This document shows positions 41,184-62,692 of a stretch of DNA of 64,000 bases, piece after piece. The stretch comes from Alphaproteobacteria bacterium (lineage in GTDB: Bacteria; Pseudomonadota; Alphaproteobacteria; CALKHQ01). The position numbers and the translations under genes were made by a program. How positions within the stretch are numbered: position 1 is the stretch's first letter; each line of letters opens with the position of its first letter. The stretch covers positions 1,673,600 to 1,737,599 of the forward strand of contig CBDDFZ010000001.1 of assembly GCA_965227515.1 (NCBI GenBank). Direction: 5' to 3'. A model generated the notes under the pieces. It saw only the letters and a program-made list of their open reading frames with translations, searched no databases and had not been told where the DNA came from.

Positions 41184-41270
41184 GCGGTCGTGGCGGAATT
41201 GGTAGACGCGCAGCGTTGAGGTCGCTGTGGGGTAAAACCCGTGGAAGTTCGAGTCTTCTCGACCGCACCA
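41184..41270 (+). tRNA. tRNA-Leu (anticodon GAG), 87 nt with encoded CCA
   Basis: Folded by hand. Acceptor GCGGTCG/CGACCGC. Anticodon stem CAGCG/CGCTG with loop TTGAGGT. Long variable arm. T-arm GGAAG-TTCGAGT-CTTCT. Confidence 0.9.
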
Positions 41271-43980: not shown

Positions 43981-45624
43981 TCAATCCAACGTGCGGGCGC
44001 GCTCGCGCAGGACGAACTTCTGGATCTTGCCGGTCGAGGTCTTCGGCAACGGGCCGAACACCACGTGCCTGGGCACCTTGAATCCAGCCAACCCGGCACG
44101 GCAGTGCGCGATGACGTCGTCGGCGCCCAGCGCGCCCTCCGCCGTCAGGGTCACGAACGCGCACGGCACTTCGCCCCATTTCTCGTCGGGCCGCGCGACC
44201 ACGGCTGCCTCCATGATGGCGGGGTGGCGGTAGAGCACGTCCTCCACCTCCAGGGTCGAGATGTTCTCGCCGCCCGAGATGATGATGTCCTTCAGCCGAT
44301 CCTTCACCTCGACATAGCCGTCGGTGTGCCACACCGCGAGATCGCCGGAGCGGTACCAGCCGCTGCCCATGGCGGCCGCGGTGGCCGTGGGGTTGTCCAG
44401 ATAGCCCTTCATCACGGTGTTGCCCCGGTACATGACCTCGCCGATGGTCTCGCCGTCGCGGGGCACGGCCAGGCCGGTGGCGGGGTCGGCGACGGTCAGG
44501 TCCTCCAGCATCGGATAGGGCACGCCCTGCTGCGCCATGCGCGCGTGACGCGCCTCCGCCGGGCCATCTTTCCATGCCTTCTGTGGCACGCACACCGTGG
44601 TCGGGCCATAGGCTTCGGTGGTGCCATAGAGATGCAGCACCTCGAAGCCGAGCCTCTCCATGGCCGCGATGATCGCCGAGGGCGGGGCCGCACCGCCGGT
44701 GGCGCACAACACGCGGCCGGGCAGAGCGAGCCGCGCCTCTTCCGGCGCGTGAACCAGCAGGTTGAGCACGATGGGCGCCCCGCACATATGGGTGACGCCA
44801 TGGGCGGCGATCTGCCGGAACACGGCCGCCGGCTCCACCTTGCGCAGGCAGACGTGGGTGCCGCCGACCACGGTGACCGCCCAGGTGAAGGTCCAGCCGC
44901 TGCAATGGAACATCGGCAGCGTCCACAGATAGACGCTGTCCTGGTTCAGCCCGAGGGTCAGCGCGTTGCCCATCGCCGCGAGATAGGCGCCGCGATGGCT
45001 GTAGACCACGCCCTTCGGGTCGCCGGTGGTGCCCGAGGTGTAGAGCAGGCAGAGCGAGTCCCACTCGTCCGCCGGGCCGGGCGGCGCGAAGGCCGGGTCG
45101 CCCCCGTCCAGCAGCTCCTCGTAGTCGAGCGCGCCGGCACTTGGCGGCAGCTCGACGTCAGGGTCCGCGATGCCGACGATGGGAATCGGCGTGGTCATGT
45201 CGGCGGTTGCCGCGCGCACGGTATCGGCGAATTCGTCGTCGGCCAGCAACAGCTTGGCCCGCCCGTGGCCCAGGATGAAGCCGACGGTGGCGGCGTCCAG
45301 CCGGGTGTTGATCGGGTTCAGCACCGCGCCCAGCATCGGCACCGCGTAGTGCGCCTCCAGCATCGCCGGCACGTTGGCGGCCATGATCGCGACCGTGTCG
45401 CCACGGCCGATGCCGCGCTTGGCGAGCGCCGAGGCCAGCCGCACGCAGCGCTGGTGGAAGGTGCGGTAGTCGAAGCGCCGGCTGCCGTGGATCACCGCCG
45501 TGCGGTCGCCGAAGAAGCGGGCCGCGCGCACCAGATACGACACCGGCGTCATCGGCACGAAGTTGGCGGCCGAGCGCACCAGCCCGTCGGGTGGCACCTC
45601 GAATGTGGGGTCGGGGGTGGTCAT
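43981..45624 (-). CDS. AMP-forming acyl-CoA synthetase
   Basis: ORF 43981..45795 trimmed to ATG 45624, which overlaps the upstream stop (ATGA). LYTSGTTGDPKGV AMP-binding motif. Confidence 0.9.
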   Translation of the reverse strand: MTTPDPTFEVPPDGLVRSAANFVPMTPVSYLVRAARFFGDRTAVIHGSRRFDYRTFHQRCVRLASALAKRGIGRGDTVAIMAANVPAMLEAHYAVPMLGAVLNPINTRLDAATVGFILGHGRAKLLLADDEFADTVRAATADMTTPIPIVGIADPDVELPPSAGALDYEELLDGGDPAFAPPGPADEWDSLCLLYTSGTTGDPKGVVYSHRGAYLAAMGNALTLGLNQDSVYLWTLPMFHCSGWTFTWAVTVVGGTHVCLRKVEPAAVFRQIAAHGVTHMCGAPIVLNLLVHAPEEARLALPGRVLCATGGAAPPSAIIAAMERLGFEVLHLYGTTEAYGPTTVCVPQKAWKDGPAEARHARMAQQGVPYPMLEDLTVADPATGLAVPRDGETIGEVMYRGNTVMKGYLDNPTATAAAMGSGWYRSGDLAVWHTDGYVEVKDRLKDIIISGGENISTLEVEDVLYRHPAIMEAAVVARPDEKWGEVPCAFVTLTAEGALGADDVIAHCRAGLAGFKVPRHVVFGPLPKTSTGKIQKFVLRERARTLD

Positions 45625-45980
45625 GGCTTTGTCGGGCCGCGCCGCGCCAGATAGCGCGGGTTGGTCACCGACAGGGTTGCCTCCAGGTGCGCGCGCAGCG
45701 CCTTGCCGAGGCCGGGCGTCGTGGTTTCGGTGAGCGTGCCGTCGCGCAGCGCTGCCGCCAGCCCGTCGATGTCGGGCGGCGCATCGCTTCCGCAAGCGGC
45801 CAGGAGCGTGCGGTCGGCGGCCGCGGCGTCATGCTGCATCGCCCGCGCGGCGATGCCGAGCGCGTTGCCGATCATCGCGCCGGTGTAGCGCTGGTCCTTG
45901 GCCAGCGCCGGCTGGACGGAGTCCGCGAACGCGGCCCGCGCGCCCTCCAGCAGGTCGATCAGGTCGGTGTTACTGGCCAT
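45621..45980 (-). CDS. Small helical protein of the kind paired with ACAD-associated phosphotransferases (LvaB/DUF6285-like)
   Basis: ATG 45980 overlaps the upstream gene by 11 nt. 119 aa. Positioned between the kinase and ligase genes. Confidence 0.55.
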   Translation of the reverse strand: MASNTDLIDLLEGARAAFADSVQPALAKDQRYTGAMIGNALGIAARAMQHDAAAADRTLLAACGSDAPPDIDGLAAALRDGTLTETTTPGLGKALRAHLEATLSVTNPRYLARRGPTKP

Positions 45981-47049
45981 GACCCCAGGATGCCACATAG
46001 TCCTCGATGCCCACGAGCGCTTCGTGGGTCAGTTCCGGCGCCATCATGCCGGTCAGCGCCAGCTCCAGCCGGTTGGCCGGATCGCCGGCGGCACGCGCTC
46101 CCTGTTGCAGCGCAATCACCGCCCAGCGCACCGCGGCCATGATCTCCCAATAGGCGATGGCGCGGTCGTCGATAGGGCGCGGGTCGACCGACTGGTAGCC
46201 GTCGTAGAACGCCTGGCGGGGGGCGATGCCGCCGGCCTCGCGCTCGACCGCGCCGAAGCGCCAGCACGCGGCGCAGAACCAGGCGATGTCCTCGTGGCGG
46301 TCGCTCCAGCCGGCGAATTCCCAATCCAGCACGGCGGTCAGGCGGCCGTCCCCTTCTACGTCCACCATGTAGTTGCCGGTGCGGTAGTCGCAGTGGCAAA
46401 GCACCAGCGCCTGGTCGGCGGGAGCGTGCGCCGCCAGCCACGTCAGCGCGTATTCCAGTGCGGGCTCGGTGGCGCCGATCTCGTCGAGATAGCGGCGGTA
46501 CTGCGCCACGCGATGGTCGCTCGGCCGCTGGTCGGGCACCGGCAGGAAGTCCAGGTCGCGCGTGTCGCCCGGCAAAATCCTGTGCAGCAGGGCCAGTTCG
46601 CGGCCGAGCTGATGGGCCACCGCCGGGCCGAAGGACTCGACCGCCGGATCGCGCACCACGCGGCGCGCCTGGGCGACGCCGGCCACATGCTGCATGACGA
46701 AGAACGGCGCGCCGATGGGGCCGTTGTCCTCGCACAGCGCGATCGGCTCGGCGACGGTCATGCCGACACGCTGCCCGGTGCGCAGCAGGGCGAACTCCTG
46801 CGCGCGCCCGTGGCTGGTGGCCACACCACTGGCGGAGTCGGTGCGCAGCACCCAGCGGTGGGTGCCGGCGCGCGGCCCGCCCGCGACCTCGGCCTCGACC
46901 GACCAGTTCTCCTGGATCGCGCCGCCGCTCAGCAATTGCGGGTTCGACAGCGTGACACTGTCGGCGCCGATCAGCGGCGCCAGTGCCGCGCCGGCCCGCG
47001 CCAGCCGCTCGCCCCGCAGCCGGCCCCCGTCGGCGGTCTCAGGCGCCAT
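45970..47049 (-). CDS. Phosphotransferase-family (APH-fold) protein, LvaA/ACAD10-kinase-like
   Basis: LCHCDYRTGNYMVD catalytic loop and VLDWEFAGW motif. Overlaps the ACAD stop by 11 nt. Confidence 0.85.
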   Translation of the reverse strand: MAPETADGGRLRGERLARAGAALAPLIGADSVTLSNPQLLSGGAIQENWSVEAEVAGGPRAGTHRWVLRTDSASGVATSHGRAQEFALLRTGQRVGMTVAEPIALCEDNGPIGAPFFVMQHVAGVAQARRVVRDPAVESFGPAVAHQLGRELALLHRILPGDTRDLDFLPVPDQRPSDHRVAQYRRYLDEIGATEPALEYALTWLAAHAPADQALVLCHCDYRTGNYMVDVEGDGRLTAVLDWEFAGWSDRHEDIAWFCAACWRFGAVEREAGGIAPRQAFYDGYQSVDPRPIDDRAIAYWEIMAAVRWAVIALQQGARAAGDPANRLELALTGMMAPELTHEALVGIEDYVASWGHGQ

Positions 47050-48247
47050 CGGCGCCCCAGCGCCAGAACCCGTCGCCGGCCTCGGCGTAGCGCTTTGCCA
47101 ACACCATGCGGTGGACCTCGTCGGCGCCGTCGACCAGCCGCGCCTGGCGGGCGTAGCGGTAGATCCATTCCAGCACCGTGTCCTTGGAATAGCCGCGCGC
47201 GCCGTTGAGCTGGATCGCGGTATCCGCCGCCCGGTGCAGGGTGTTGGCGACGTGCACCTTGGCCATGGAGACTTCGGCGCGCGCCCGGTCGCCCTGGTCC
47301 AGCAGCCAGGCCGCGTGCATCACCGACAACCGCCCGATCTGGATGTCGTGGGCGACCGCGCCCATCAGCAGTTGCACCGACTCCCGGTCGGCGAGCTTGA
47401 CCCCGAACCCCTCGCGCTCGGACGTGTACGCGGCGGCGATCTCCATGCAGCGCTTGGCGAGCCCCAGCCAGCGCATACAGTGGGTGAGGCGGGCGGTGCC
47501 GAGCCGGATCTGGGTCAGCTTCAGACCGTCGCCGACCTCCATCAGCCGGTTCTCGTCGGGGATGACCAGGCCGTCGAAGCGCAGCTCGCAGTGGCCGCCA
47601 TGCTCCTCCGGCCCCATGATCGGGATGCGGCGCTCGATGCGCCAGCCCGGCTGGTCCTTGTCGAACAGGAACGCGGTCAGCCCGCGGCGCGGGTCGTCGC
47701 TGGTGCGCGCGATCAGGATGAAATGGCTGGCCACGCCGGCCCCGGTGATGAACCACTTGTGGCCGTTGACCACCCAATTGTCGCCGTCGCGGGTCGCGGT
47801 GGTGCGGATCATCGTCGGGTCCGAACCGCCGCCGGGGTGCGGCTCGGTCATCGCGAAGGCGGAGCGGACGGTGCCGTCGACGATGGGCTGCAGCCAGCGC
47901 GTCTTCTGGGCGTCGGTCGCCACCTTCTCCAGCACCGTCATGTTGCCGTCGTCGGGGGCGGCGCAATTGAAGCAGACCGGGCCGAAGATCGAGCGGTTGG
48001 CCTCCTCGTACATCACCGCGCGGCCGACCACGCCAAGCCCCATGCCACCGCGCGCGGGCGGCATCTGCGGCGACCACAGGCCGGCTTCCTTCACCTGGGC
48101 CTGCACGACGGCCAGCAGGTCGGGGCGGATGTTCTGGTGGTCGTCGTAGTTGGCCGCGTCGGCCTCTAGCGGCAGGATGTGCCGGTCGACGAAGGCACGG
48201 GTGCGCAGGCGCACGTCCTCTACTGCGGGGTCCAGCGCAAAGTCCAA
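47039..48247 (-). CDS. Acyl-CoA dehydrogenase family protein (LvaC/ACAD10-11-like)
   Basis: ORF 47039..48592 trimmed to TTG 48247, 9 nt after GGAGGA, giving MDFALDPAVEDVRLR. Has AFAMTEPHPGGGSDP and a C-terminal ARLVDGADEVH. Confidence 0.88.
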   Translation of the reverse strand: MDFALDPAVEDVRLRTRAFVDRHILPLEADAANYDDHQNIRPDLLAVVQAQVKEAGLWSPQMPPARGGMGLGVVGRAVMYEEANRSIFGPVCFNCAAPDDGNMTVLEKVATDAQKTRWLQPIVDGTVRSAFAMTEPHPGGGSDPTMIRTTATRDGDNWVVNGHKWFITGAGVASHFILIARTSDDPRRGLTAFLFDKDQPGWRIERRIPIMGPEEHGGHCELRFDGLVIPDENRLMEVGDGLKLTQIRLGTARLTHCMRWLGLAKRCMEIAAAYTSEREGFGVKLADRESVQLLMGAVAHDIQIGRLSVMHAAWLLDQGDRARAEVSMAKVHVANTLHRAADTAIQLNGARGYSKDTVLEWIYRYARQARLVDGADEVHRMVLAKRYAEAGDGFWRWGADGA

Positions 48248-48249
48248 GG

Positions 48250-49221
48250 CTAGTGATCCTCCACGAGGTTTTCGGTCGGCGCGGCGCCGGAGGCGATCAA
48301 CAGCCCACCGGTCAGGGCATCGGCGCGCGGCGTGATCATGCGCGGCTGGATGGTCTCGGGCAACCAGGGCTGCACCGCCGCCGCCATGCCGCCGTGCAGT
48401 GCCGCCGGCCACGCGCCGGCCGGGTCCAGGATCGCGATCAGCCGGCCGATCTCGCGCCCGGCCGCCGCCAGCAGCACCCGCGCGGCGGGATCGCTGTCCC
48501 CGGTCTCCGCGACCATGCGCGCGATGGCGGCGAAATCGGCGGGCTGGGCGCGGGTCAGCCACTCGATGATGGCGACGTGATCGTCGCCGCAATGGGCGCG
48601 CACCCGGCGCAGCAGGTCTGTATCGGGCGCATGGGCCATGCCGGCGGGCATGGCGTCGGCGTCCGCCGGTATCATCGGCGAGCCAGCGATGTCGTGGGCC
48701 AACCGGCCCTCATCCACGGCGCGGATTGCCAACGACAGCGCGCGATACCCTGTCCAGGCCCCACCGCCTTCGTCGCCGATGGGAAAGCCCCAGCCGCCGG
48801 CCTGGTGGCAGCCGCCGGCCTCGTCCAGCGCCATGGCATTGCTGCCGGTGCCGACGACCACCAGCACGCCGGGCTTGCCCTCGTGGGCGCCGATCAGCGC
48901 GATGTAGGCGTCTGAGACGATGTCGAGGCTGTGGGTGGGCGGCAGGGCGGCGATGAACTGCGCCCGCCGCTCCATGTTGCGATGGCCGGCCAGCGCGCAG
49001 ACGACGGCGGTGTCGGCCAGGGCGGTCTGGCCAAGCCCGGCGGTCGCGACAGCCTGCTCGGCCATCGATGTGACGGCGGCAATGGCGCCCTCGGCACTGA
49101 CGGTCAGGCTGGCCGGGCCGGCGGTCGCCTCGGCCAGCACGGTGCCGTCGCGATCGGCCAGCCGCGCGGTGGCGTGGCTCGCCCCGCCGTCCACCGCCAG
49201 CAGGAAGCGCGGTGCGCTCAT
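48250..49221 (-). CDS. BadF/BadG/BcrA/BcrD-type ATPase (N-acetylglucosamine-kinase-like)
   Basis: ORF 48250..50235 trimmed to ATG 49221, which overlaps the upstream stop (ATGA). LAVDGGASHATARL and VVVGTGSNA motifs. Confidence 0.75.
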   Translation of the reverse strand: MSAPRFLLAVDGGASHATARLADRDGTVLAEATAGPASLTVSAEGAIAAVTSMAEQAVATAGLGQTALADTAVVCALAGHRNMERRAQFIAALPPTHSLDIVSDAYIALIGAHEGKPGVLVVVGTGSNAMALDEAGGCHQAGGWGFPIGDEGGGAWTGYRALSLAIRAVDEGRLAHDIAGSPMIPADADAMPAGMAHAPDTDLLRRVRAHCGDDHVAIIEWLTRAQPADFAAIARMVAETGDSDPAARVLLAAAGREIGRLIAILDPAGAWPAALHGGMAAAVQPWLPETIQPRMITPRADALTGGLLIASGAAPTENLVEDH

Positions 49222-50147
49222 GCCCGGGCCTCGCCGTAGTAGAGCGTGACCGTGTGCTTGGCCTCGGCGAAGAACAGCCAGCGGCCGACCAGGGTGCCGG
49301 CCAGGGCGCTGGCGAATGCGAGCAGGCTGAGCACGGCACCGAGCCAGCGGTCGCCTGTCGCCAGCACGATCACGGCCAAGAGGGCGGGCACCGCCGCAGC
49401 GGCCAGTAAAGCGATGACGCGCAGGCGCGTGGCGTGCCGGCGCGCGATCCGGAAGCCCATCTCCTTCATCAGGTAGTTGGGCTCGGTGTGCGGCGGCTCC
49501 AGCATGCGGACCTTTCCGATGTAGCCAAGGCCGGTGGCGGTACCGCTGTCGCTGATCGACGCGGTGCGGTCCATCCGCCACCAATAGGCGATCTGGAGGC
49601 CGCTTGTCAGCGCGGCGGCCGCGAGTGCCTGCCATGCCATCCAGGGCAGGTACTGGCCGAACAGCAGGGCCAGCAGCAGATAGGCCTGCGCGCCGGTCAG
49701 CCAGGCATACGCGAGATACAGCGCCGGGGTGTAGGCGTTGTGCCAGTGCCGCACCGTCTTCAACGAGGCATAGATCATCGCCGTGCACAGCACGGTGACG
49801 ACCGCCAGAACGGCTGTGACCGTGCCCAGGGCGCCGCTGAACTCCTCGCGGAACACCCACAGCGCGCCCAGCACTACGGCCGGCAGGAACGTGACCAGGG
49901 CGGCCACGCCCTCGCGCGACAGCCACGACGACCGCCATTGGCTGAGCGCCCGCCAGGCCCGCTCCGGATGGCCGAGGTGAAAGGTGGAGGACACCAGCCC
50001 GGCTGCGGCCAGCCCCAACGCCAGCGTGAAGCCAACGAGCCCGCTGCCCCATTCCGGTGCCAGCAGCCCCAGCGACAGCAGGAACAACAGCCCGTAGCCG
50101 GCACCCGACAGCGTCGTGAACACGATGATGGAAAGGGCGGGGTGCAT
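49218..50147 (-). CDS. DmsC/YnfH-family membrane anchor subunit-like protein
   Basis: ORF 49218..50192 trimmed to ATG 50147. Eight hydrophobic segments. The MHPALSIIVFTTLSGAGYG...FHLGHPERAW pattern is typical of DMSO-reductase anchor proteins. Confidence 0.75.
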   Translation of the reverse strand: MHPALSIIVFTTLSGAGYGLLFLLSLGLLAPEWGSGLVGFTLALGLAAAGLVSSTFHLGHPERAWRALSQWRSSWLSREGVAALVTFLPAVVLGALWVFREEFSGALGTVTAVLAVVTVLCTAMIYASLKTVRHWHNAYTPALYLAYAWLTGAQAYLLLALLFGQYLPWMAWQALAAAALTSGLQIAYWWRMDRTASISDSGTATGLGYIGKVRMLEPPHTEPNYLMKEMGFRIARRHATRLRVIALLAAAAVPALLAVIVLATGDRWLGAVLSLLAFASALAGTLVGRWLFFAEAKHTVTLYYGEARA

Positions 50148-50296: not shown

Positions 50297-50749
50297 ATGT
50301 ACACTCTGAAGCCCGGCATCAAGCGCGATCCCATGCGGCGCTGGGCGTTGCCCGACCGTGTCTTCTTCGGCCATGGCGCCTGCCATATTCTGGCCGGTGC
50401 CTATCTGGCGAGGCCGCCATTGCCCGGCTTTCGTGCCGAGCGGATCGTTCCGCGCGACGACTTGGCGGGGAACCATATCTACCTCACCGACGGCGACATC
50501 GCCTTCGACTATCACGGCTATTCCGTGCGCCGGCGTCTGCTCGACCATCATCGCAAGGGCTGGTCGGGCCGATATCCCGGCTGGGATTGCGCGATCGAGG
50601 AGGTCGATTTCGACCTGCTGTGCACCGCGGCGCTGAACGGCCGCAAGATGCTGGGACCGGATCAGTACCTGTTCGATCCGGTGCCGCGCGCCCACCGCTT
50701 CATCGCCAGGATCGATCACACTCGCGCATCGAGTTGTGCGCAACGGTGA
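50297..50749 (+). CDS. Hypothetical protein
   Basis: 150-aa ORF with host-like codon bias. No family recognised. Confidence 0.45.
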   Translation: MYTLKPGIKRDPMRRWALPDRVFFGHGACHILAGAYLARPPLPGFRAERIVPRDDLAGNHIYLTDGDIAFDYHGYSVRRRLLDHHRKGWSGRYPGWDCAIEEVDFDLLCTAALNGRKMLGPDQYLFDPVPRAHRFIARIDHTRASSCAQR

Positions 50750-50760
50750 GCGCTCTCCAA

Positions 50761-51384
50761 CTAATCCTCTTGGGGCAGGAAGAACGCCTCGTCCGCCATT
50801 TCCGGCCGGGCGACGATGCTGTCCACCCGCCAGCGTCCGGCGGGCGATTCCCGGAGCAGGAAGGCAACCGGGCCCTCGTTGGTGTCGACCGCATGGACAA
50901 CAACCTGCCTGGCGCCGTCGCCCTGGGTGATCTCGTCGACCGACTGCACCTCAACCGGACCTGCAAAATCGATGGCGTGAATGCCGAGCTGATCGGCCGA
51001 CCACAGGATGACCTGAAAACTGTGGAACACGTCGATGCCAAGGAACGGCCTTTCATAGTCCATCGGGTGCTCATAGGGGCCGAACTGAGCGTCGAAGGCT
51101 TGCCTCTTCAGGTCCTGGTCGGCATCCGGGTCGAGGTAGTCGTCGAACTGGAACCGCTGAACGTGCATCATGAACCGCATCCTGGCCGTCGGGTCGAGCG
51201 CGAAGTAGGCAGCGATGAAATCGTCCTCGGCGAAGACTTCCGAGTAGGTCTGGACCGCCGCTTCGGGGGTCGAGAGGTCCAATACCTGCTCGACCCGCGA
51301 CATGGGAGGGCTCGCCATGGCGGCTGCCGCATATCCCGTGGCGGTCGCAGCGGCGATGGCAAGACTGAACGTTCGCAGGATCAT
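50761..51384 (-). CDS. Secreted protein, function unknown
   Basis: ORF 50761..51501 trimmed to ATG 51384 (GGAGA SD). Signal peptide. Lies 22 nt downstream of the Fe-S subunit gene. Confidence 0.55.
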   Translation of the reverse strand: MILRTFSLAIAAATATGYAAAAMASPPMSRVEQVLDLSTPEAAVQTYSEVFAEDDFIAAYFALDPTARMRFMMHVQRFQFDDYLDPDADQDLKRQAFDAQFGPYEHPMDYERPFLGIDVFHSFQVILWSADQLGIHAIDFAGPVEVQSVDEITQGDGARQVVVHAVDTNEGPVAFLLRESPAGRWRVDSIVARPEMADEAFFLPQED

Positions 51385-51406: not shown

Positions 51407-52150
51407 TCAGGGCAGCGCCGACAGCGCGCGGTCGAGCCAGGCGAGGAAGCCCGTGGGCTTGGCGCCGCCATCCTCGGGCACTGGCGCGGGATCGCTGGCA
51501 TCGCGCGACACCTTCGGGCGCGGCGGCAGGTATTTGTTTGTTGGCCGGCAGCCCATTTCCGGCATCAGGTCATAGCCTTGGCGCTCGCGCACCAGTGACG
51601 AAACCGCCGAGTCCGGGTCGGCAAGGTCGCCGAAGTGCCGCGCGCCGGTCGGGCAGGCATTGACGCAGGCGGGCTGGCGCTGCGCCTCCGGGATCGTCTC
51701 GTTCTCGATGCGGTCGACGCAGAGCGTACATTTCTTCATCACCCCGCCCAGCGTGTCCATCTCGCGCGCGCCATAGGGGCAGGCCCAGGCACACAGCCCG
51801 CAACCGATGCACAAATCCTCCTCCACCAGCACGATGCCGTCGTCGGCGCGCCTGTAAGAGGCGCCGGTCGGGCACACGGTCACGCACGGCGCGTTGTCGC
51901 AATGCAGGCAGGAGCGCGGGAAATAGACCGTGCGGGCATGCGGGCCCTCGCCAACCTCGAACCCGTGCACCCGGTTCAGCCAGGCGCCGGCGACATCCTT
52001 GCCGTAGGCGTTCTCGTCGGACAGCGGCGCGACATGGCCGCCGGTGTTCCACTCCTTGCAACTGGTCACACAGGCCTGGCAGCCGACGCAGGTGTCGAGG
52101 TCGATGACCAGGCCCAGCTTGCGCGGTGGGGAGGGCGGCAGCGAGGTCAC
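51407..52150 (-). CDS. 4Fe-4S dicluster (DmsB/PsrB-like) electron-transfer subunit
   Basis: Four Cys clusters (CVGCQACVTSC, CLHCDNAPC, CIGCGLCAWAC, CTLC...). The GTG start overlaps the catalytic subunit stop. Confidence 0.9.
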   Translation of the reverse strand: MTSLPPSPPRKLGLVIDLDTCVGCQACVTSCKEWNTGGHVAPLSDENAYGKDVAGAWLNRVHGFEVGEGPHARTVYFPRSCLHCDNAPCVTVCPTGASYRRADDGIVLVEEDLCIGCGLCAWACPYGAREMDTLGGVMKKCTLCVDRIENETIPEAQRQPACVNACPTGARHFGDLADPDSAVSSLVRERQGYDLMPEMGCRPTNKYLPPRPKVSRDASDPAPVPEDGGAKPTGFLAWLDRALSALP

Positions 52151-55050
52151 TTGCCGCCTCCCAGGACTGGGACATCCAGGTAACGCGCGGTCTGGGCGTG
52201 GCGGCTGAAGTCGGCGCCATAGCGCACGTCCTCAGGCGACGGCGGCAGGCCGGGCGGCAGCGGCAGGGCGTCGAAGCGCGGCTCGGTCGCCTCGGCACCC
52301 TCCGCCTTCTCGATCGAGACCCGCAGGTCGAACCATGCCGCCTGGCCGGTGATCGGGTCGGCGACCGGGCGCCGGTGGCCGTAGCCGTCGGCCGGGAGCC
52401 GCTCGTCGATCAGGTGGTTGAGCAGGAAGCCCTTCGTTGCCTCCGGCGCGTCCGGCTTCAGGTTCCAGGCCCCGGCTCGCTTGCCGATGGCGTTCCAGGT
52501 CCACACCGTCTGCTCGTTGACGCCGGCCATCCGCCTGACCTCAACCTTTATGCGGCCGTTGCGGCTGGAAAGCCACGCCCAGTCGCCGTCCTGCAGGTCG
52601 TGCCGGTCGGCCAGTGCGTGGGAGATGTAGAGCACGTTGCGCGCCATGATCTGGCGCAGCCACGCGTTCTGCGATCCCCAGGAGTGGTACATCGCCATCG
52701 GCCGCTGGGTGATGGCGTGGAGCGGATAGGCGGCCTCGTCGGTGGCCTGGTCCTCGTGCGGCGGGTGCCAGAACGGCAGCGGATCGAAATGGCGGGCGAT
52801 CCAGTCGCGCTGGTCATCCGGTGGCTGCACCGGGCCGTGGCCCTCGGCGGCGCGGCGGAAGCGCTGCAGCGGCTCGGCATAGAGCTGCAGGATCACCGGA
52901 TCGGGCGTGGCGACGAAGCCCATGCGCTCTGCATATTTCAGGTAGGCGGCGTTGCCGTGCTTGTAGAAGCGCTGGTCGTCGGCCAGCCGGTCGTGCCAGA
53001 AGCAGCCGTTCTCGATGTAGCGGTCGAGCTGGTCCGGATTGGGCGCGCCCTCGCCGTGCTGGGTGCCGCCTTCGCCGCGCCATCCGGCCAGGCTGCCGAT
53101 GCCGGGCCGGCGCTCGTGATTGACCAGATAGTCCGGGTAGCCGCCCGGATAGCGCGGGCCGCCGTCCGGCTCGGTCATGCCGGGCAGGCCTAGCCGCGCG
53201 CCCAGGTCCAGCAGCACGGACTGGAACGGCCGCACGTCGCGGTCGGGCTCGACGACCGGCTGCCGGATCGCGTCGGCGGGGCCGTCGGCCTCCGAAATCG
53301 GCCGGTCGAGCAGCGAGACGCAGTCCCATCGCTCCAGATAGGTGGTGTCCGGCAGCACGATGTCGGCGTAGGCCACCGTCTCCGAATAGTAGGCGTCGGA
53401 ATAGACGATGTGCGGGATCTTGTAGTCGCCGGTGGCCTCGTCCTTCGCCGCCAGCCGCTGCATGGTCTCGGCCGTGTTCATGGCCGAGTTCCAGGCCATG
53501 TTGGCCATGTACATGAACAGGGTGTCGATGGGGTAGGGGTCGCCGTCCACCGCGTTGCGGATCACCAGGTGCATCATGCCGTGGGCGGCAATCGGCGCCT
53601 CCCACGAATAGGCGCCGTCGATGCGCATCGGCCGGCCGTCGGCGTCGAGCAGCAGGTCCTCCGGCGCTTGGGGGAAGCCCAGCGGCGGACCCGGCAATGG
53701 CTGGCCGGCGCGGACCTGGTCGGGCTTGCCGGCGGGCAGCGGGCCGGGCGGGGCCGGGCGCGGGAACGGCGCCTTGTAGCGGAAGCCGCCGGGCGCATCG
53801 ATGCTGCCGAGCAGGACCTGCAACAAATGCAGCGCGCGGCAGGTGTGGAAACCGTTTGAGTGGGCGGAGATGCCGCGCATGGCGTGCATGGAGACCGGGC
53901 GGCCGACCATGCGCGAGTGGTGCTCGCCGGTCCAGTCGGTCCACGGCTGGTCGATGGCGATCTCATGGTCGAAGGCGGCCGCGATCAGCTCGTCGCCGAT
54001 GCGCCGGATGGTGGCTGCCGGCACGCCGCACTGGTCCGCCACCGCCTCCGGCGCATAGGCCGGGTCGAGATAGCGCTCGGCCAGCAGCTCCAGCACGGGC
54101 CGGGCCTGGCGGCCGTCCTCCAGCGTCACCGCGCCATGCAGGGCGGCCGCCATCGGCGCCTCGCGATGGGGCAGGGCGCGCTGGCGCAGGCGATGCCAGA
54201 CCTGCGGCTGGCCCTCGCCGTCGCGCGCGAACAGGCCATGGTCGGCGGCCTCGGGGTCCTCCACTACCAGCCAGCCGGCATTGGTGAACCTGAGCAGGTA
54301 GTCCAGGTCGATGCGGTGCTTCGACAGCACGTGATGGATCAGCGCCATCACGAACAGGCCGTCGCGGCCGGGCCGGATGCCGATCCATTCGTCGGCGATG
54401 GCGGAATAGCCGGTGCGCACCGGGTTGACCGAGACCACCTTGGCACCGCGCGCCTTCAGCTTGCCGAGCCCCATTTTGATCGGGTTGGAGTCGTGGTCCT
54501 CGGCAACCCCGAACATCAGCAGGTACTGGGTGCGCTCCCAGTCCGGCTCGCCGAACTCCCAGAACGAGCCGCCGATGGTGTAGATGCCAGCGGCCGCCAT
54601 GTTGACCGAGCAGAACCCGCCATGGGCGGCGTAGTTCGGGGTGCCGAACTGGCTCGCCCACCAGCCGGTCAGCGCCTGGCTCTGGTCACGCCCGGTGAAG
54701 AACGCGAGCTTCTTCGGGTCGTCATCGCGTATCGCGCCCAGCCAGCCGGCGACGGTGTCCAGCGCCTCGTCCCACTCGATTTCCTGGAACTCGCCCTTGC
54801 CGCGCTCGCCGACCCGCTTCAGCGGCTTGGTCAGCCGCGCCGGCGAGTTGTGCTGCATGATGCCGGCCGAGCCCTTGGCGCACAGTACGCCCCGGTTCAC
54901 CGGGTGGTCGGGGTTGCCCTCAATGTAGCGGACGCGCCCGTCCTTCAGGTGCACTTTGATGCCGCAGCGGCAGGCGCACATATAGCAGGTGCTGGTCTTG
55001 ACCTCGTCACCGATCGGCTGGTTGACCGGGATGGGGCGCCTACTCGTCAT
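52147..55050 (-). CDS. Molybdopterin (bis-MGD) oxidoreductase catalytic subunit; no signal peptide
   Basis: 967 aa. N-terminal CYMCACRCG...C Fe-S motif at residues 22-58. No hydrophobic Tat h-region. Confidence 0.9.
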   Translation of the reverse strand: MTSRRPIPVNQPIGDEVKTSTCYMCACRCGIKVHLKDGRVRYIEGNPDHPVNRGVLCAKGSAGIMQHNSPARLTKPLKRVGERGKGEFQEIEWDEALDTVAGWLGAIRDDDPKKLAFFTGRDQSQALTGWWASQFGTPNYAAHGGFCSVNMAAAGIYTIGGSFWEFGEPDWERTQYLLMFGVAEDHDSNPIKMGLGKLKARGAKVVSVNPVRTGYSAIADEWIGIRPGRDGLFVMALIHHVLSKHRIDLDYLLRFTNAGWLVVEDPEAADHGLFARDGEGQPQVWHRLRQRALPHREAPMAAALHGAVTLEDGRQARPVLELLAERYLDPAYAPEAVADQCGVPAATIRRIGDELIAAAFDHEIAIDQPWTDWTGEHHSRMVGRPVSMHAMRGISAHSNGFHTCRALHLLQVLLGSIDAPGGFRYKAPFPRPAPPGPLPAGKPDQVRAGQPLPGPPLGFPQAPEDLLLDADGRPMRIDGAYSWEAPIAAHGMMHLVIRNAVDGDPYPIDTLFMYMANMAWNSAMNTAETMQRLAAKDEATGDYKIPHIVYSDAYYSETVAYADIVLPDTTYLERWDCVSLLDRPISEADGPADAIRQPVVEPDRDVRPFQSVLLDLGARLGLPGMTEPDGGPRYPGGYPDYLVNHERRPGIGSLAGWRGEGGTQHGEGAPNPDQLDRYIENGCFWHDRLADDQRFYKHGNAAYLKYAERMGFVATPDPVILQLYAEPLQRFRRAAEGHGPVQPPDDQRDWIARHFDPLPFWHPPHEDQATDEAAYPLHAITQRPMAMYHSWGSQNAWLRQIMARNVLYISHALADRHDLQDGDWAWLSSRNGRIKVEVRRMAGVNEQTVWTWNAIGKRAGAWNLKPDAPEATKGFLLNHLIDERLPADGYGHRRPVADPITGQAAWFDLRVSIEKAEGAEATEPRFDALPLPPGLPPSPEDVRYGADFSRHAQTARYLDVPVLGGGK

Positions 55051-55059
55051 CGGGAGAGG

Positions 55060-55386
55060 TCACGCGCGACCGGTCTTCTCGCCGTTGGCGAACAGGCGGT
55101 TGCCCTGTTCGTCGATGATCTGCTTGCCCTTCGAGATGGCGAAGCTCTCCGCCTCGTCCTTGGACGAGAAGGTGTCTGCGCGCTGGTACTCGCGTTCCAG
55201 GTTTCCGTCATCGCCGCCGGTCTTGACGATGACCCCGGCAAGCCGCCACTGGCTGCCTGCCTTGATCGGGGCGGGGTAGATCGTCAGCCCGGCGTGCTCC
55301 ACCGGATCGCCGCGCCCGGCCGGGCCGCCGTCACCGGATTTCTCGCCACCGCCGCCGCCGAACAGTTTGGATAGGATGCCTGCCAT
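55060..55386 (-). CDS. HlyU-type small conserved protein (nominal 'transcriptional activator HlyU' family; function unverified)
   Basis: SKLFGGGGG N-terminus, QWRLAGVIVK, and SKGKQIIDEQGNRLF C-terminal motif as remembered for that family. Sits 9 nt upstream of the Mo-enzyme gene. Confidence 0.65.
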   Translation of the reverse strand: MAGILSKLFGGGGGEKSGDGGPAGRGDPVEHAGLTIYPAPIKAGSQWRLAGVIVKTGGDDGNLEREYQRADTFSSKDEAESFAISKGKQIIDEQGNRLFANGEKTGRA

Positions 55387-56525: not shown

Positions 56526-57464
56526 TCACACCGGGATCAGCGTGATGCCGTCGTTGGTCGCATGGTACTCCGGCAGGATGAACACCATCACGTCGCTGCT
56601 GTTGTAGACGTATGTGTAGGACTCGGTGCCGTTGCCGCCGGTGATGAAATAGCTGCCCTGGATGGAGTCGCCATCCAGGAACGCGTAGTTTTCGATGATA
56701 TCGGGCACGCCGTCGGTGCCGGCGATGAAATAGTCAGCGCCTGCGCCGCCCACCAGCATGTCGGTGCCGTTGCCGCCGTCATAGGTGTCGTCGCCGTCGC
56801 CGCCGTGCAGGTAGTCGGTGCCGTCGCCGCCGAACATCATGTCATTGCCGCCGCCGCCCCACAGGCGATCGTCGCCGGCGTCGCCGTACAGAATGTCGTT
56901 ACCCACCGCGTCGTAGCCGTCGCCGAACAGGCGGTCGTTGGCCTCGCCGCCGTGGATCGTGTCGTGGCCGTACATGCCGTAGATCCAGTCCTCGCCGCCG
57001 CCGCCGTCGATGGTGTCGTTCCAATAGCCGCGGGTGTAGGCCAGTTCATGGTGGTCGCCGTTGATCCAGTCGTGGTCGTCGCCGCCGAATATCCGGTCGG
57101 CGCCGGCGCCGCCATAGAGCTTGTCCTCGCCATCGCCGCCGTCGATCAGGTCGTTCCCGGCGCCACCGAACACCGTGTCGTCGCCGTTTCCGCCATAGAG
57201 CGAGTCGTTGCCGGCCATGCCGTCGATGGTGTCGTGCCCGTCCTCGCCATGGAGCGTGTCGTCGTCCTGCAGGAACGGGTTGGGCGTGCCGTTGCCGATG
57301 ATGATGTCGTTGAACGGCCCGCCATGGATTTCATCGTCCCCGGCGCCGCCGATGAACGTGCCGCCGATCTGGTCGTATTGCGGCTCGGGCGGCGCCTCGC
57401 GCGTATCGGGCGTCCACCGGAGATCGGTCTGGAGGGAACTGGGCGGGGTGCTGCTGCGGGCCAT
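56526..57464 (-). CDS. RTX (hemolysin-type calcium-binding repeat) protein
   Basis: At least 12 GGxGxDxxx nonapeptides (GGAGDDEIHG, GGNGDDTVFGGAGNDLIDGGDGEDKLYGGAGADRIFGG...). GGAG SD. Confidence 0.85.
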   Translation of the reverse strand: MARSSTPPSSLQTDLRWTPDTREAPPEPQYDQIGGTFIGGAGDDEIHGGPFNDIIIGNGTPNPFLQDDDTLHGEDGHDTIDGMAGNDSLYGGNGDDTVFGGAGNDLIDGGDGEDKLYGGAGADRIFGGDDHDWINGDHHELAYTRGYWNDTIDGGGGEDWIYGMYGHDTIHGGEANDRLFGDGYDAVGNDILYGDAGDDRLWGGGGNDMMFGGDGTDYLHGGDGDDTYDGGNGTDMLVGGAGADYFIAGTDGVPDIIENYAFLDGDSIQGSYFITGGNGTESYTYVYNSSDVMVFILPEYHATNDGITLIPV

Positions 57465-57921: not shown

Positions 57922-60900
57922 ATGAACAAGCAGGTCACCACCAAGCGCGGCCGCCTGAACATCGCCGAAGGCAGCGCCCCCACACAGCCCGACGCGCAGG
58001 AGCTTTCGCACCTGTACCGCGCGATGCTGACGGCGCGCGAGATCGACCGGGTCGAGGATGTGGCGACCCGGCGCGGCGAGGCGTTCTTCCACGTCTCCGG
58101 CAAGGGGCACGAGGGCTCGGCGGCGCTGGCGCTGCACCTGACCAACGACGACTGGCTGCACTGCCACTATCGTGACAAGGCGCTGATGGTGGCACGCGGC
58201 ATCACCGCGCGCGCGTTCTTCGACGGCTTCTATTGCAAGGACGCCTCGCATTCGCGCGGGCGCCAGATGTCGGCCCATATGTGCGATGCCTCGCTGCGCG
58301 TTGCCAGCGTGTCCGGCCCGGTCGGCAATGGCGCGTTGCATGCTGTGGGCATGGCGCTGGCCGGCAAGGACATGGAGACCCGGCCCATCGTGCTGTTCTC
58401 CTGCGGCGACGGCACCACGCAGGAGGGCGAGTTCCTGGAGTCGTGCGCCGAGGCGGCGCGCGCGGAAGCCCCGGTGCTGTTCTTTGTCGAGGACAATGGC
58501 TGGGCGATCTCCACGCCGACCGCCGGCAAGACGTTCTATGCCCTGCATGCGCAGCGGCCGGACGCCTTCCACGGTATCCCGATCCACCGCATCGACGGGC
58601 GCGACGCGATCCAGGCGTGGCGCGAGCTCGGGCCCATCGTTGCGCGCATGCGGCGCACCCGCCAGCCCGCGATCGTCGTGTTCCAGGTCGCGCGCATCGC
58701 CAACCACACCAACGCCGACGACCAGTCGATCTACCGCGACGCGGCCGACATCAAGCTGGCCGAGGAAACCTGCGACCCGATCCCGATCCTGGAAGACCAG
58801 CTCCTGGACATGGGGTGGAGTGCCGCCGATCTGGCGGCGGCCAAGGACGAGATCGCGCGCCAGGTGGCGGAGGCCGATGAGGCGGCGGCCTTCGGGCCCG
58901 ACCCCGAGCCGATGCTGACGGCCGACGTGGCGCCGTCGGCTGCGGTCGCGGAGGCGTTGCAGCCCGGTCGTGCGCGCAAGCCCGCCGCGGCGCCGGCGCC
59001 CGCCGCGGTGCCGAACACGCCGCAGACCATGGGCGAGGCGATCCGTGCCGTGCTGCGCGGCCGGCTGGCCGACGACCCGCGCGTCTATCTGTGGGGCGAG
59101 GACATCGAGGACCCGAAGGGCGACGTATTCGGCGTAACCAAGGGCCTCAGCACCCAGTTCCCGAAGCGCGTGGTCAACGCGCCGCTGACCGAGTCCACCA
59201 TCGTCGGCGTCGCCATCGGCCGGGCGATGGCCGGCGAGCGCCCGGTGGCGTTCCTGCAGTTCGCCGATTTCCTGCCACTTGCCTACAACCAGATCGTCAG
59301 CGAGCTGGGCAGCATGGCGTGGCGCACCGACGGCGCCTTGACCGCGCCTGTTATCATCATGGTGCCGTGCGGCGGCTATCGCCCCGGTCTGGGGCCGTTC
59401 CACGCCAGTTCGTTCGAATCGCTGATGACCCACACGCCGGGCATCGACGTGGTGATGCCGTCGACAGCGGAGGATGCGGCCGGCCTGCTGAACGCCGCCT
59501 TCGAGTCAACCCGGCCGACGGTGTTCTTCTATCCCAAGAGCTGCCTCAACGACCCGCGCGGCGCGATGACCGGCGATGCCGGCCAGGTCAGGCTGACGCC
59601 CGGATCGGCGCGCAAGGTGCTGTCGGGCCGCGACCTGACAATGGTCGGCTGGGGCAACACCGTGCGGCTGTGCGAGCAGGCTGCCGAGGCGCTGGAGAAA
59701 GCCGGTGTCGAGGCCGAGGTGTTGGACCTGCGCAGCCTGGGGCCCTGGGACAAGCGGGCGGTGCTGTCGTCGGCGGAGACCAGCGGCCGGCTGCTGGTGG
59801 TGCACGAGGACAACCACACCAACGGCTTCGGCGCCGAGATTCTGGCGACGGTCGGCGAGCAGTGCCGCACCCATGTGGCCATGCGCCGGGTGACCCGGCC
59901 CGACACCTATGTGCCGTGCAATTTCGCCAACCAGATCGAGGTGTTGCCGTCGTTCAAGCGGGTGCTGGAAACGGCGGCCGACATGCTGGACATCGACGTC
60001 GAATGGACGCCGCCGCCGGCCGCCGAGGAAGGCATCGTGCTGGTCGAGGCCATCGGGTCCGGCCCGACCGACGAGACCGTCGACGTGGTCGAGCTGATGG
60101 TCGAGGTCGGCCAGACTGTCGAGCGCGGCGAGGAGATCGCGGCCCTTGAGGCGATCAAGAGCGTGTTCGAGCTGACCTCGCCCGCCTCCGGCGTGATTGA
60201 GGAGATCGTCGTCGGGATCGGCGAGACGGTGCCGGTCGGTGCGCCGCTGATGAAGATCCGCACCGACGACACCACCCAGCGCGCCAAGCCCTTGACCCAC
60301 GAGGCGCCCGGCACGCCCACCCTGACCCGGCGCGCCAAGCCGGCGGCACCGGCTGTTGCCGGCAGGGGCGAGGGCGCCGCGGCCCAGCCGGCCGGCACGC
60401 TCAGGGTCGGGCTGTCGCAGGTCGCCACCGTCACCGGCAGCCGGGTGGTGCCGAACGAGGAACTGGTACAGGGCCGCACCGACGACACCTACCGCGATGC
60501 GGAGAAGCTGACCGGCATCCGCGCCCGCCATTGGGCGGCGGAGGGCGAGACGGTGCTGTCGCTCGGCGTGCGCGCGGTGCGTGCGGCGCTGGAGGCGAAC
60601 GGGCTCACCGCCGACGACCTCGACCTCGTGATCTGCAGCACGACCACGCCAGATCAGGTGACGCCCTCCGTGGCCTATCGCATCCTGCGCGATGTTGCCG
60701 GCGAGCGCGGCAACCCGGCGGTGGCCGCCTATGACATCAATGCGGCATGCTCGGGCTATCTCTACGCGCTGCAGGCCGCGCACGACTTCCTGCAGAACCA
60801 GCCGCAAGGCCGTGTGCTGGTGGTGACGGCCGAGGTGCTGTCGCGGCTGCTGGACCGCGACGACCCGTCGACCGTGCTGGTGTTCGGCGACGCGGCGTCG

Positions 60901-61353
60901 GCCACCGTGGTCTATGGCGACGCGCATTTCGATGGCGCTGCCGCGCGCCTGTTCCGCCCTGATATCTCCGGAAAGAGCGACGACCGCAACGCGCTGACCG
61001 TGCCGGTGCCAGGCCAGGGCTATGTGCGGATGGACGGCCAGCGGGTGTTCCGCGAGGCGGTGCGCGCCATGGTCGGCAGCCTGAACCGGGTCTGCGCCGG
61101 CCAGGGGCTGGGGCTCGGCGACCTGGACATGGTGGTGCCGCACCAGGCCAACCAGCGCATCATCGACGCCATCGCGCAGCGCACCGGCGCCAACGCCTAT
61201 TCCAACATCAAGCATTTCGGCAACACGTCGTCGACCAGCATTCCGTTGTGCCTGGCCGAGGTGCTGCCCGACGCGCCGGCCGGCCAGCGGCTGGGCCTGT
61301 GCGCCTTCGGCGGCGGCTATACCTACGCGGCCGCGGTGCTGGAAACCGTCTAG
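57922..61353 (+). CDS. Fusion protein: TPP-dependent 2-oxoacid dehydrogenase E1-alpha + E1-beta + lipoyl-type domain + FabH-like KAS III
   Basis: ORF 57688..61353 trimmed to ATG 57922 (1143 aa). Has the TPP motif GDGTTQEGEF...EDNGWAIS, E1-beta NAPLTESTIVGVAIG, lipoyl-like LEAIKSVFEL, and a KAS III triad (C943 NAACSGY, H1074 VPHQANQ, N1101 GNTSSTS). Confidence 0.85.
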   Translation: MNKQVTTKRGRLNIAEGSAPTQPDAQELSHLYRAMLTAREIDRVEDVATRRGEAFFHVSGKGHEGSAALALHLTNDDWLHCHYRDKALMVARGITARAFFDGFYCKDASHSRGRQMSAHMCDASLRVASVSGPVGNGALHAVGMALAGKDMETRPIVLFSCGDGTTQEGEFLESCAEAARAEAPVLFFVEDNGWAISTPTAGKTFYALHAQRPDAFHGIPIHRIDGRDAIQAWRELGPIVARMRRTRQPAIVVFQVARIANHTNADDQSIYRDAADIKLAEETCDPIPILEDQLLDMGWSAADLAAAKDEIARQVAEADEAAAFGPDPEPMLTADVAPSAAVAEALQPGRARKPAAAPAPAAVPNTPQTMGEAIRAVLRGRLADDPRVYLWGEDIEDPKGDVFGVTKGLSTQFPKRVVNAPLTESTIVGVAIGRAMAGERPVAFLQFADFLPLAYNQIVSELGSMAWRTDGALTAPVIIMVPCGGYRPGLGPFHASSFESLMTHTPGIDVVMPSTAEDAAGLLNAAFESTRPTVFFYPKSCLNDPRGAMTGDAGQVRLTPGSARKVLSGRDLTMVGWGNTVRLCEQAAEALEKAGVEAEVLDLRSLGPWDKRAVLSSAETSGRLLVVHEDNHTNGFGAEILATVGEQCRTHVAMRRVTRPDTYVPCNFANQIEVLPSFKRVLETAADMLDIDVEWTPPPAAEEGIVLVEAIGSGPTDETVDVVELMVEVGQTVERGEEIAALEAIKSVFELTSPASGVIEEIVVGIGETVPVGAPLMKIRTDDTTQRAKPLTHEAPGTPTLTRRAKPAAPAVAGRGEGAAAQPAGTLRVGLSQVATVTGSRVVPNEELVQGRTDDTYRDAEKLTGIRARHWAAEGETVLSLGVRAVRAALEANGLTADDLDLVICSTTTPDQVTPSVAYRILRDVAGERGNPAVAAYDINAACSGYLYALQAAHDFLQNQPQGRVLVVTAEVLSRLLDRDDPSTVLVFGDAASATVVYGDAHFDGAAARLFRPDISGKSDDRNALTVPVPGQGYVRMDGQRVFREAVRAMVGSLNRVCAGQGLGLGDLDMVVPHQANQRIIDAIAQRTGANAYSNIKHFGNTSSTSIPLCLAEVLPDAPAGQRLGLCAFGGGYTYAAAVLETV

Positions 61354-61835: not shown

Positions 61836-62639
61836 CTATTCCGATCCGCGGGCTGAGATGCCGCCGTCCACCGGCAGGCAGGCGCCGGTGATGTAGCTGG
61901 CCTCGTCGGACGCCAGGAACAGGATCGCGGCAGCAATCTCGCGCGGCCTTGCCTGCCGCTTCATCAGGCCCGGCCCGCCCTCGTACGGGCGTTCGGTGAC
62001 GGCAGGGTCGATGGGCGCGCCGCGTGCCGCCGCCCGCTTCAGGTGGAACTCTGTCAGGGTGGCGCCCGGCAGCACGGCGTTGACCCGGATGCCGGCTTCG
62101 GCATGGTCGCAGGCCAGCGAGCGGGTCATGCCGAGCATGCCGGCCTTCATGGTGTCGTATTGCAGCATGCCCGGGCGGCCCGACTGCGCGTGCACCGACG
62201 AGACGTTGACGATGGTGCCGCCGGCCGGCATCAGCGGAATGACGTGCTTCGCGGCCAGCGCGGCGCCGCGCAAGTTGACGGCGTAGATCGCATCCCAGCT
62301 TGCCTGGTCCGCCTCGGTCACCGGGCCATAGGCGCGGATGCCGGCGTTGTTGACCAGCACGTCGACCCGGCCGTGGCGCTCCGCGCATTGGTCGGCGAGC
62401 GCTTCGATCGCGGCCTCGTCCGCGACATCGACCTCCGCCGGCCAGACGCGCGCGCCAACGTCTTCGCCCACGGCCGCGCCGCACTCGTGGGCAATCGTCT
62501 CAGCCGTTTCTTGTGCGTCGCTGAAGTAACGATCGACCAGAACGACCGTCGCCCCCTCGGCCGCGAACATCATCGCTGTCGCCCGGCCAATCCCCGCGCC
62601 GGCGCCTGTTACAACCGCAATCCTGCCGTCCAGCTTCAT
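61836..62639 (-). CDS. SDR-family oxidoreductase
   Basis: ORF 61836..63086 trimmed to ATG 62639. TGAGAGIG, NNAG and YxxxK (YDTMKAG) motifs. Confidence 0.9.
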   Translation of the reverse strand: MKLDGRIAVVTGAGAGIGRATAMMFAAEGATVVLVDRYFSDAQETAETIAHECGAAVGEDVGARVWPAEVDVADEAAIEALADQCAERHGRVDVLVNNAGIRAYGPVTEADQASWDAIYAVNLRGAALAAKHVIPLMPAGGTIVNVSSVHAQSGRPGMLQYDTMKAGMLGMTRSLACDHAEAGIRVNAVLPGATLTEFHLKRAAARGAPIDPAVTERPYEGGPGLMKRQARPREIAAAILFLASDEASYITGACLPVDGGISARGSE

Positions 62640-62692
62640 CAATTGCCTCGCTCTTTCTGTCCTTCGATGGCGTTCGGATAACTTCCGATCAT

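Follow-up and report, generated by a model that had tools for sequence, protein, structure and literature searches.

Does a run of six genes packed almost without spacers serve one pathway? We examined this question for a six-gene block (43981-50147, minus strand) in a 64,000-nt stretch of an alphaproteobacterium-like genome, hereafter the window, in which a DmsC-like gene and a nagK-like gene precede genes for an acyl-coenzyme A (CoA) dehydrogenase-type enzyme (ACAD), an APH-fold kinase, a small DUF6285 protein and an acyl-CoA synthetase. The last four resemble a set known from the Pseudomonas putida lva operon, where LvaA is an APH-fold kinase, LvaB its small partner, LvaC an ACAD-family protein and LvaE a CoA ligase. 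A sequence-only reading of the window had treated all six genes as one functional unit. Our comparison with related loci argues otherwise: the block quite likely comprises three functionally separate parts, namely the anchor of a molybdenum (Mo) enzyme, a sugar kinase and a four-gene lva-type module, probably carried on one transcript. The six genes, in order, are as follows.

49218-50147, minus strand: DmsC/NrfD-type membrane anchor, 309 aa (Pfam DmsC, 1.3e-17)
48250-49221, minus strand: NagK-like ASKHA sugar kinase, 323 aa (Pfam BcrAD_BadFG)
47039-48247, minus strand: LvaC/ACAD10-11-type ACAD-fold enzyme, 402 aa, TTG start (Pfam, solved matches, signature residues)
45970-47049, minus strand: LvaA-like APH-fold kinase, 359 aa (Pfam APH, 2e-35; catalytic motifs)
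45621-45980, minus strand: DUF6285 protein, 119 aa, ~12.5 kDa, predicted LvaB-like kinase partner (Pfam DUF6285)
43981-45624, minus strand: acyl-CoA synthetase, 547 aa, LvaE-like in role (Pfam AMP-binding and AMP-binding_C)

Pfam supports each family label (DmsC, BcrAD_BadFG, three ACAD domains, APH, DUF6285 and AMP-binding). The GC content at third codon positions (GC3) is 0.90-0.94 in all six genes, a coding signature that fits a ~70% GC genome.

The four downstream genes as a predicted lva-type module

We compared the ACAD with its solved relatives. The protein carries three Pfam ACAD domains with the flavin adenine dinucleotide-binding ACAD fold, and among its named solved matches mouse ACAD11 ranks first (8v3u, 6e-63, full length). 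An unnamed ACAD of Mycobacterium abscessus (4hr3) scores marginally above 8v3u, and ordinary medium- and short-chain ACADs (MCAD-type) lie far behind at ~1e-43. ACAD10, ACAD11 and LvaC share a specific HCMR motif, preceded by the family-wide Arg and, five residues further back, by another Arg (R626, R631, H634 and R637), together with a catalytic Asp (D753) that replaces the usual Glu, and these signature residues are required for 4-phosphoacyl-CoA turnover (PMC12440821). The window sequence RLGTARLTHCMR aligns column by column with RLGPGRIHHCMR of ACAD11 and contains R-x4-R-x2-HCMR; within RLVDGADEVH, the protein has the catalytic Asp in the column of D753. All 82 close ACAD homologues that we collected keep the HCMR motif. 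On these residues, the window ACAD is predicted to eliminate phosphate from 4-phosphoacyl-CoA.

The kinase belongs to a large family, with more than 3700 homologues on record. Its best solved matches, 3dxp and the ACAD11 kinase domain, are distant (E 1e-10 to 1e-12). It keeps the H-x-D-x4-N motif (CHCDYRTGN) and the DWE motif (LDWEF), in columns that match D220/N225 and DWE of ACAD11, and is predicted to be a 4-hydroxyacyl-CoA kinase. A split kinase/ACAD pair from Burkholderia pseudomallei performs the same two reactions as ACAD10 (PMC11342911), which provides an experimental precedent for assigning functions to split bacterial versions. The activities proposed here for the window enzymes derive from homology to LvaA/LvaC, to ACAD10/11 and to this tested pair.

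LvaB has been described as a hypothetical protein of 12 kDa; it is recovered with LvaA in pull-downs, and the two are needed together to form 4-phosphovaleryl-CoA (PMC6692424). A protein of ~12 kDa is likewise encoded immediately 3' of the kinase gene in the window, and in every related locus that offers the room (29 of 29), the kinase is directly followed by a DUF6285 open reading frame (ORF). A hidden Markov model (HMM) built from 111 family representatives, gathered by exhaustive search, was applied to the fetched loci; it detected no DUF6285 ORF in the ~130 fetched loci lacking the kinase. Kinase, DUF6285 and HCMR-type ACAD were linked in 29 loci. Because DUF6285 accompanies the kinase in every one of these loci and never stands alone, it very probably represents the LvaB family, an identity drawn from size, position and linkage. 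We infer its role as a kinase partner on the same grounds. DUF6285 behaves as an obligate partner of LvaA-type kinases, and the strong case for its identity with the LvaB family is the most useful by-product of the analysis.

DUF6285 itself is predicted as a confident small helical domain and has no solved relative. Named members of the family come from Pseudomonas lopnurensis, Stutzerimonas, Marinobacter and Zoogloea. The small protein retrieved no sequence but its own in a word-indexed search, and the papers searched contain no mention of DUF6285, PF19802 or PP_2792 (P. putida LvaB). We found one kinase-DUF6285 fusion (P0053, 481 aa, with a Gly/Arg-rich linker), encoded on a 1.5-kb NCBI contig. 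Since the 111 DUF6285 representatives are essentially all stand-alone, we gave this fusion little weight; it may be a frameshift artefact. DUF6285-associated kinases may also bind CoA differently, perhaps aided by DUF6285.

The synthetase scored 824 bits against NCBIfam PRK08162 (cutoff 677). Its orthologues (49-63% identity) cluster with ACAD, APH and DUF6285 genes in eight loci (L001, L125, L132, L140, L141, L151, L152 and L153), which is consistent with an LvaE-like role. To place the module among its relatives, we used an ACAD-anchored metagenome scan of 80 loci (ACAD identity 68-77%), 60 of which had room to judge the adjoining slots. A short-chain dehydrogenase/reductase (SDR) gene lies directly 5' of the ACAD gene in 42 of the 60 and is absent from that slot in 18, while the kinase gene lies directly 3' in 28. 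The gene set typical of the eight loci with a synthetase orthologue is synthetase-SDR-ACAD-APH-DUF6285, that is, the lvaE/D/C/A/B set. HCMR-type ACADs mark the 4-hydroxy-acid route of Pseudomonas and mammals, and they are common in environmental Alphaproteobacteria, usually in this arrangement.

In the window, the slot held by the SDR in most relatives holds the nagK-like gene. No orthologue of the LvaD-type SDR, the reductase for 4-oxoacyl-CoA, was found in the 64 kb; the best SDR match (61860-62645) has 31% identity and lies 14 kb off. The sequence-only reading had taken the missing reductase as a hint of a hydroxy-acid, not a keto-acid, substrate. The absence holds for the window, but this view of the substrate, while possible, does not safely follow, because 18 of the 60 relatives also lack an SDR at this position and the window covers only 64 kb of the genome.

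Together, the ACAD signature residues, the kinase motifs, the kinase-DUF6285 linkage and the co-clustering synthetase orthologues bear out the assignment of the four downstream genes to an lva/ACAD10-11-type module. In the proposed pathway, the synthetase would make 4-hydroxyacyl-CoA, and the APH-fold kinase, together with DUF6285 as its small helical partner, would phosphorylate the 4-hydroxyl. The ACAD10/11/LvaC-type flavoenzyme would then remove the phosphate to give 2-enoyl-CoA or 3-hydroxyacyl-CoA for beta-oxidation. By homology, the core of the block is an ordinary, reductase-less member of the known lva/ACAD10-11 family of 4-hydroxy-acid modules.

Several related loci showed other arrangements. 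HCMR-type ACADs with no kinase directly downstream (L086, L096, L098, L122, L155, L160 and 26 others) are mostly SDR-ACAD pairs set in other contexts, such as beside nitrile-hydratase-like genes in L155 and L098. In Azoarcus sp. KH32C (L002; AP012304.1, 7597-12948), genes for a 3HCDH protein, an ACAD (42% identity), an SDR fragment, APH, DUF6285, a histidine phosphatase and an enoyl-CoA hydratase form a variant cluster, in this order. A histidine phosphatase adjoining an lvaA homologue has been reported in P. citronellolis (PMC6692424).

The DmsC-like gene and its upstream partners

The first gene of the block had been described as an orphan. Upstream of it, we identified two genes of a Mo-oxidoreductase, separated from it by two small ORFs.

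52147-55050, minus strand: PhsA/PsrA-like molybdopterin subunit, 967 aa (Pfam Molybdop_Fe4S4, Molybdopterin and Molydop_binding)
51407-52150, minus strand: 4Fe-4S (FeS) subunit, 247 aa (Pfam Fer4_11)
50761-51384, minus strand: orfX, GC3-low ORFan with a signal-peptide-like N-terminus
50297-50749, plus strand: orfY, GC3-low ORFan, divergent from the dmsC-like gene

The Mo-subunit and FeS-subunit genes share 4 nt and lie upstream of the DmsC-like gene on the same strand, with 1.26 kb between the end of the FeS gene and the DmsC-like start. The best NCBIfam matches are PhsA for the Mo subunit and NrfC/DsrO/DmsB for the FeS subunit, and the best solved match of the Mo subunit is the thiosulfate/polysulfide reductase 2vpw. 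When genomes were scanned with the Mo subunit, at least 595 related loci emerged, most of them alphaproteobacterial, in which the trio is conserved at 63-71% identity; the comparisons below cover the best 80 of them (L005-L084). A DmsC orthologue was present in 74 of the 80, and five of the six exceptions were contigs ending just past the FeS gene. The three genes were contiguous (MoA-FeSB-DmsC) in 73 of the 80 related genomes, the median spacer from the FeS gene to the DmsC start being 19 nt (n = 73). The window DmsC shares 41-55% identity (median 49%) with these orthologues, which share 52% among themselves; being as divergent from them as they are from each other, it is intact. Genes for the BadF-like (NagK-like), APH and DUF6285 proteins were found downstream in none of the 80 Mo-anchored loci. 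By this conserved gene order, the DmsC-like protein is the anchor subunit of the upstream Mo-oxidoreductase, its gene displaced from its partners and no orphan.

The interval that separates them has a distinct composition. GC3 is 0.79-0.80 in orfX and orfY, compared with 0.88-0.94 in the neighbouring genes. Neither ORF has a Pfam or NCBIfam match or a tblastn match in the related loci, and no flanking repeats that could mark mobile-element ends were found around the 1.26-kb segment. Judging from composition and gene order, the segment is a lineage-specific insertion of two ORFans that split the anchor gene from its partners. A gene for a HlyU-family small protein (55060-55386, minus strand) lies 9 nt upstream of the Mo-subunit gene and is not conserved there in relatives. 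More broadly, tblastn with the HlyU-like, orfX, orfY, NUDIX and MgtE proteins identified no conserved neighbours in the related loci.

The NagK-like gene

The second gene had been read as encoding a BadF-type ATPase. The Pfam family name BcrAD_BadFG spans both electron-activating ATPases and sugar kinases. The sole NCBIfam match of the protein is the N-acetylglucosamine (GlcNAc) kinase NagK_SO3507 (6e-33), at 114.6 bits against an equivalog cutoff of 370. Its solved matches are all sugar kinases: 1zc6, a probable GlcNAc kinase (5.8e-42), MurK, human NAGK and hexokinase. The protein is divergent, with its best homologue at 43% identity. The gene for that homologue is followed by nagA (TIGR00221, 7.8e-62), a homologue at 37% identity belongs to a SIS+nagA cluster, and one at 33% to an anmK+murQ cluster; the window copy has no amino-sugar genes beside it. 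We also considered an activase of a 2-hydroxyacyl-CoA dehydratase or benzoyl-CoA reductase and rejected it, as the solved matches include no activase and no HgdAB/BcrBC-like gene adjoins. The NCBIfam match, the solved matches and the homologue contexts point to a GlcNAc/glucosamine-type ASKHA sugar kinase in place of the ATPase.

The nagK-like gene was absent from all 160 related loci (80 ACAD-anchored and 80 Mo-anchored), and it is probably unrelated to the lva-type module. The kinase would most likely serve amino-sugar or cell-wall recycling. Neither a BadF-like nor a DmsC-like gene was found in any of the 80 ACAD-anchored loci. The sequence-only reading was right to note that the known pathway has no place for the two leading genes. 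With the leading genes missing from the ACAD-anchored loci and the module missing from the Mo-anchored loci, the view of the block as one functional unit is not upheld. The block is best understood as three pieces that rearrangement has joined in a compact genome. The main outcome is a corrected annotation: the combination of lva, BadF and DmsC genes is probably a chance neighbourhood and not a new pathway.

Gene junctions and co-transcription

We next consider how the three parts are joined. The six ORFs and their five junctions (-4, +2, -11, -11 and -4 nt, in order) are exactly as the sequence-only reading described them, coordinates included. The dmsC-like stop overlaps the BadF-like start in an ATGA (49218-49221), and 2 nt separate the BadF-like stop (TAG) from the TTG at 48247 that starts the ACAD. 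This TTG has a GGAGGA Shine-Dalgarno sequence shortly 5' of it, and the resulting ACAD N-terminus, MDFALDP, agrees with the MDFTLPP of close homologues with ATG starts. The ACAD and kinase genes share 11 nt (47039-47049), as do the kinase and small-protein genes (45970-45980), and the small-protein stop overlaps the synthetase start in a second ATGA (45621-45624). A crude map of the genes in the whole window, drawn from GC3, places same-strand neighbours mostly 3-70 nt apart with only about three further overlaps, so that five successive junctions of at most 2 nt are unusually tight for the window.

Scans for consensus promoters and terminators inside the block stayed at background level and were uninformative; co-transcription is likely. 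The 149-nt spacer between the dmsC-like gene and the divergent orfY is the only non-coding site for a promoter of the six-gene block. From the tight coupling we infer that the six genes probably share a transcript; shared function has left no sign in the comparative data. Promoters inside coding sequence might instead drive the lva-like module apart from the dmsC-like and nagK-like genes. The three parts do differ in evolutionary origin and partners, and a sigma-70 consensus scan misses promoters of high-GC alphaproteobacteria, so their absence says little. We nevertheless consider separate transcription unlikely: no intergenic space is left between any of the six genes, no terminator-like site rises above background, and overlapping stop and start codons are typical of co-translated operon genes.

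Alternative interpretations

Five points weigh against the interpretation of the block as a 4-hydroxy-acid module preceded by two unrelated genes. First, the likeness to P. putida LvaA/B/C/E is indirect, drawn via ACAD11 and the literature. Second, a kinase directly downstream is lacking from 32 of the 60 close ACAD homologues, which indicates that the ACAD clade is not always locally coupled to a kinase. Third, the window kinase has Gln (AQEF, residues ~80-86) where ACAD11 has the CoA-contacting Arg86 (DREF), a contact taken from a molecular dynamics model of ACAD11 and not from LvaA. An Arg precedes the alpha-C Glu in ACAD11, 3dxp and 9o56, and an Asp does so (ADEY) in the kinase homologue P0053. 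Fourth, ACAD10-type kinases were recently reported to phosphorylate alkylglycerols, with prokaryotic ACAD10-kinase homologues acting on 1-O-alkylglycerols in vitro (PMC13596139), so that kinases of the superfamily may differ in specificity. Fifth, the very tight coupling of the dmsC-like and nagK-like genes to the module goes unexplained if they are functionally unrelated to it.

The third and fourth points, along with the distance of the window kinase from ACAD11 and 3dxp, would also fit a trio of ACAD, APH and DUF6285 that acts on another substrate class, either through a different phospho-elimination or as an alkylglycerol-type lipid kinase beside an ordinary dehydrogenase. This appears improbable, however, as the ACAD has the complete phosphate-binding R/H/R cluster and the catalytic Asp. 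Moreover, the synthetase, and in relatives the SDR, is conserved in the cluster as in the lva gene set, and the linkage of kinase, DUF6285 and HCMR-ACAD in 29 loci argues in the same direction.

The fifth point would be accounted for if all six genes formed one pathway, a variant of 4-hydroxy-acid catabolism in which the ASKHA kinase replaces the LvaD step or takes a free or lactone compound as its substrate, and the flavoenzyme is linked to the membrane or to quinone through the DmsC-like protein. Junctions elsewhere in the window are indeed less tight, the nagK-like gene occupies precisely the SDR slot of relatives, and its divergent product falls below the NagK equivalog cutoff. On the other hand, neither leading gene adjoins the module in the ACAD-anchored loci, DmsC orthologues always accompany MoA-FeSB, and the relatives of the nagK-like gene lie in amino-sugar contexts, its solved relatives being sugar kinases. 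In addition, enzymes of the ACAD10/11 type work without an external electron acceptor (PMC12440821, PMC11342911). We therefore regard a single six-gene pathway as very improbable. A nagK-like kinase, its gene translationally coupled on either side, that was recruited to phosphorylate, for example, a free hydroxy acid or a sugar-acid precursor, which would yield a reductase-free lva variant co-expressed with a re-used membrane anchor, is given a very small chance; a real recruitment of both leading genes retains a residual chance in this same very low range. The division into anchor, sugar kinase and four-gene module remains the interpretation that we favor.

Other features of the window

Three further features lie outside the block and the Mo-oxidoreductase operon.

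57922-61353, plus strand: single 1143-aa ORF with E1 alpha and beta (E1_dh, Transket_pyr, Transketolase_C), a lipoyl/biotinyl domain and a C-terminal, FabH-like KAS III
56526-57464, minus strand: RTX calcium-binding repeat protein
41184-41267, plus strand: one tRNA gene

The combination of E1 dehydrogenase, lipoyl and KAS III domains in one ORF is unusual.

Comparison with known systems

Like the PsrABC, PhsABC and DmsABC molybdoenzymes, the window trio combines a Mo subunit, a 4Fe-4S subunit and an anchor, and the catalytic subunit is closest to PhsA/2vpw. It differs from these types in that the catalytic subunit shows no Tat-type signal (N-terminus judged by eye) and the anchor gene lies 1.26 kb apart.

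In comparison with mammalian ACAD10/ACAD11 (8v3u, 8v3v), the window ACAD aligns over its full length, with identical positions for R-x4-R-x2-HCMR and the catalytic Asp, and both kinases contain HxDxxxxN and DWE. In the window, however, kinase and ACAD are separate polypeptides and there is no HAD domain. The window also has an extra DUF6285 subunit without an ACAD11 counterpart, and a Gln at the Arg86 equivalent.

The closest clusters, found in metagenomes and metagenome-assembled genomes (L125, L132, L140, L152, L153 and L001), share 68-77% identity with the window in the ACAD, 46-55% in APH and 56-63% in the synthetase, and DUF6285 is present. In these clusters, the SDR gene lies directly 5' of the ACAD gene and the synthetase gene is at the cluster front or divergently transcribed, whereas the window has the nagK-like gene in the SDR slot.

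The lva operon of P. putida KT2440 comprises lvaRABCDEFG (PMC6692424, PMC11342911, PMC12440821). The window cluster resides in an alphaproteobacterium-like genome of ~70% GC with relatives in Rhodospirillales and Hyphomicrobiales, lacks an LvaD-type SDR, an LvaR-type regulator and a transporter, and is arranged as C-A-B-E, compared with A-B-C-D-E in the lva operon. Both have an APH-fold kinase, a ~12-kDa partner gene just 3' of it, a phosphate-eliminating ACAD-fold enzyme and an acyl-CoA synthetase, and the window module is predicted to follow the same route as the lva operon, from 4-hydroxyacyl-CoA through 4-phosphoacyl-CoA to enoyl-CoA.

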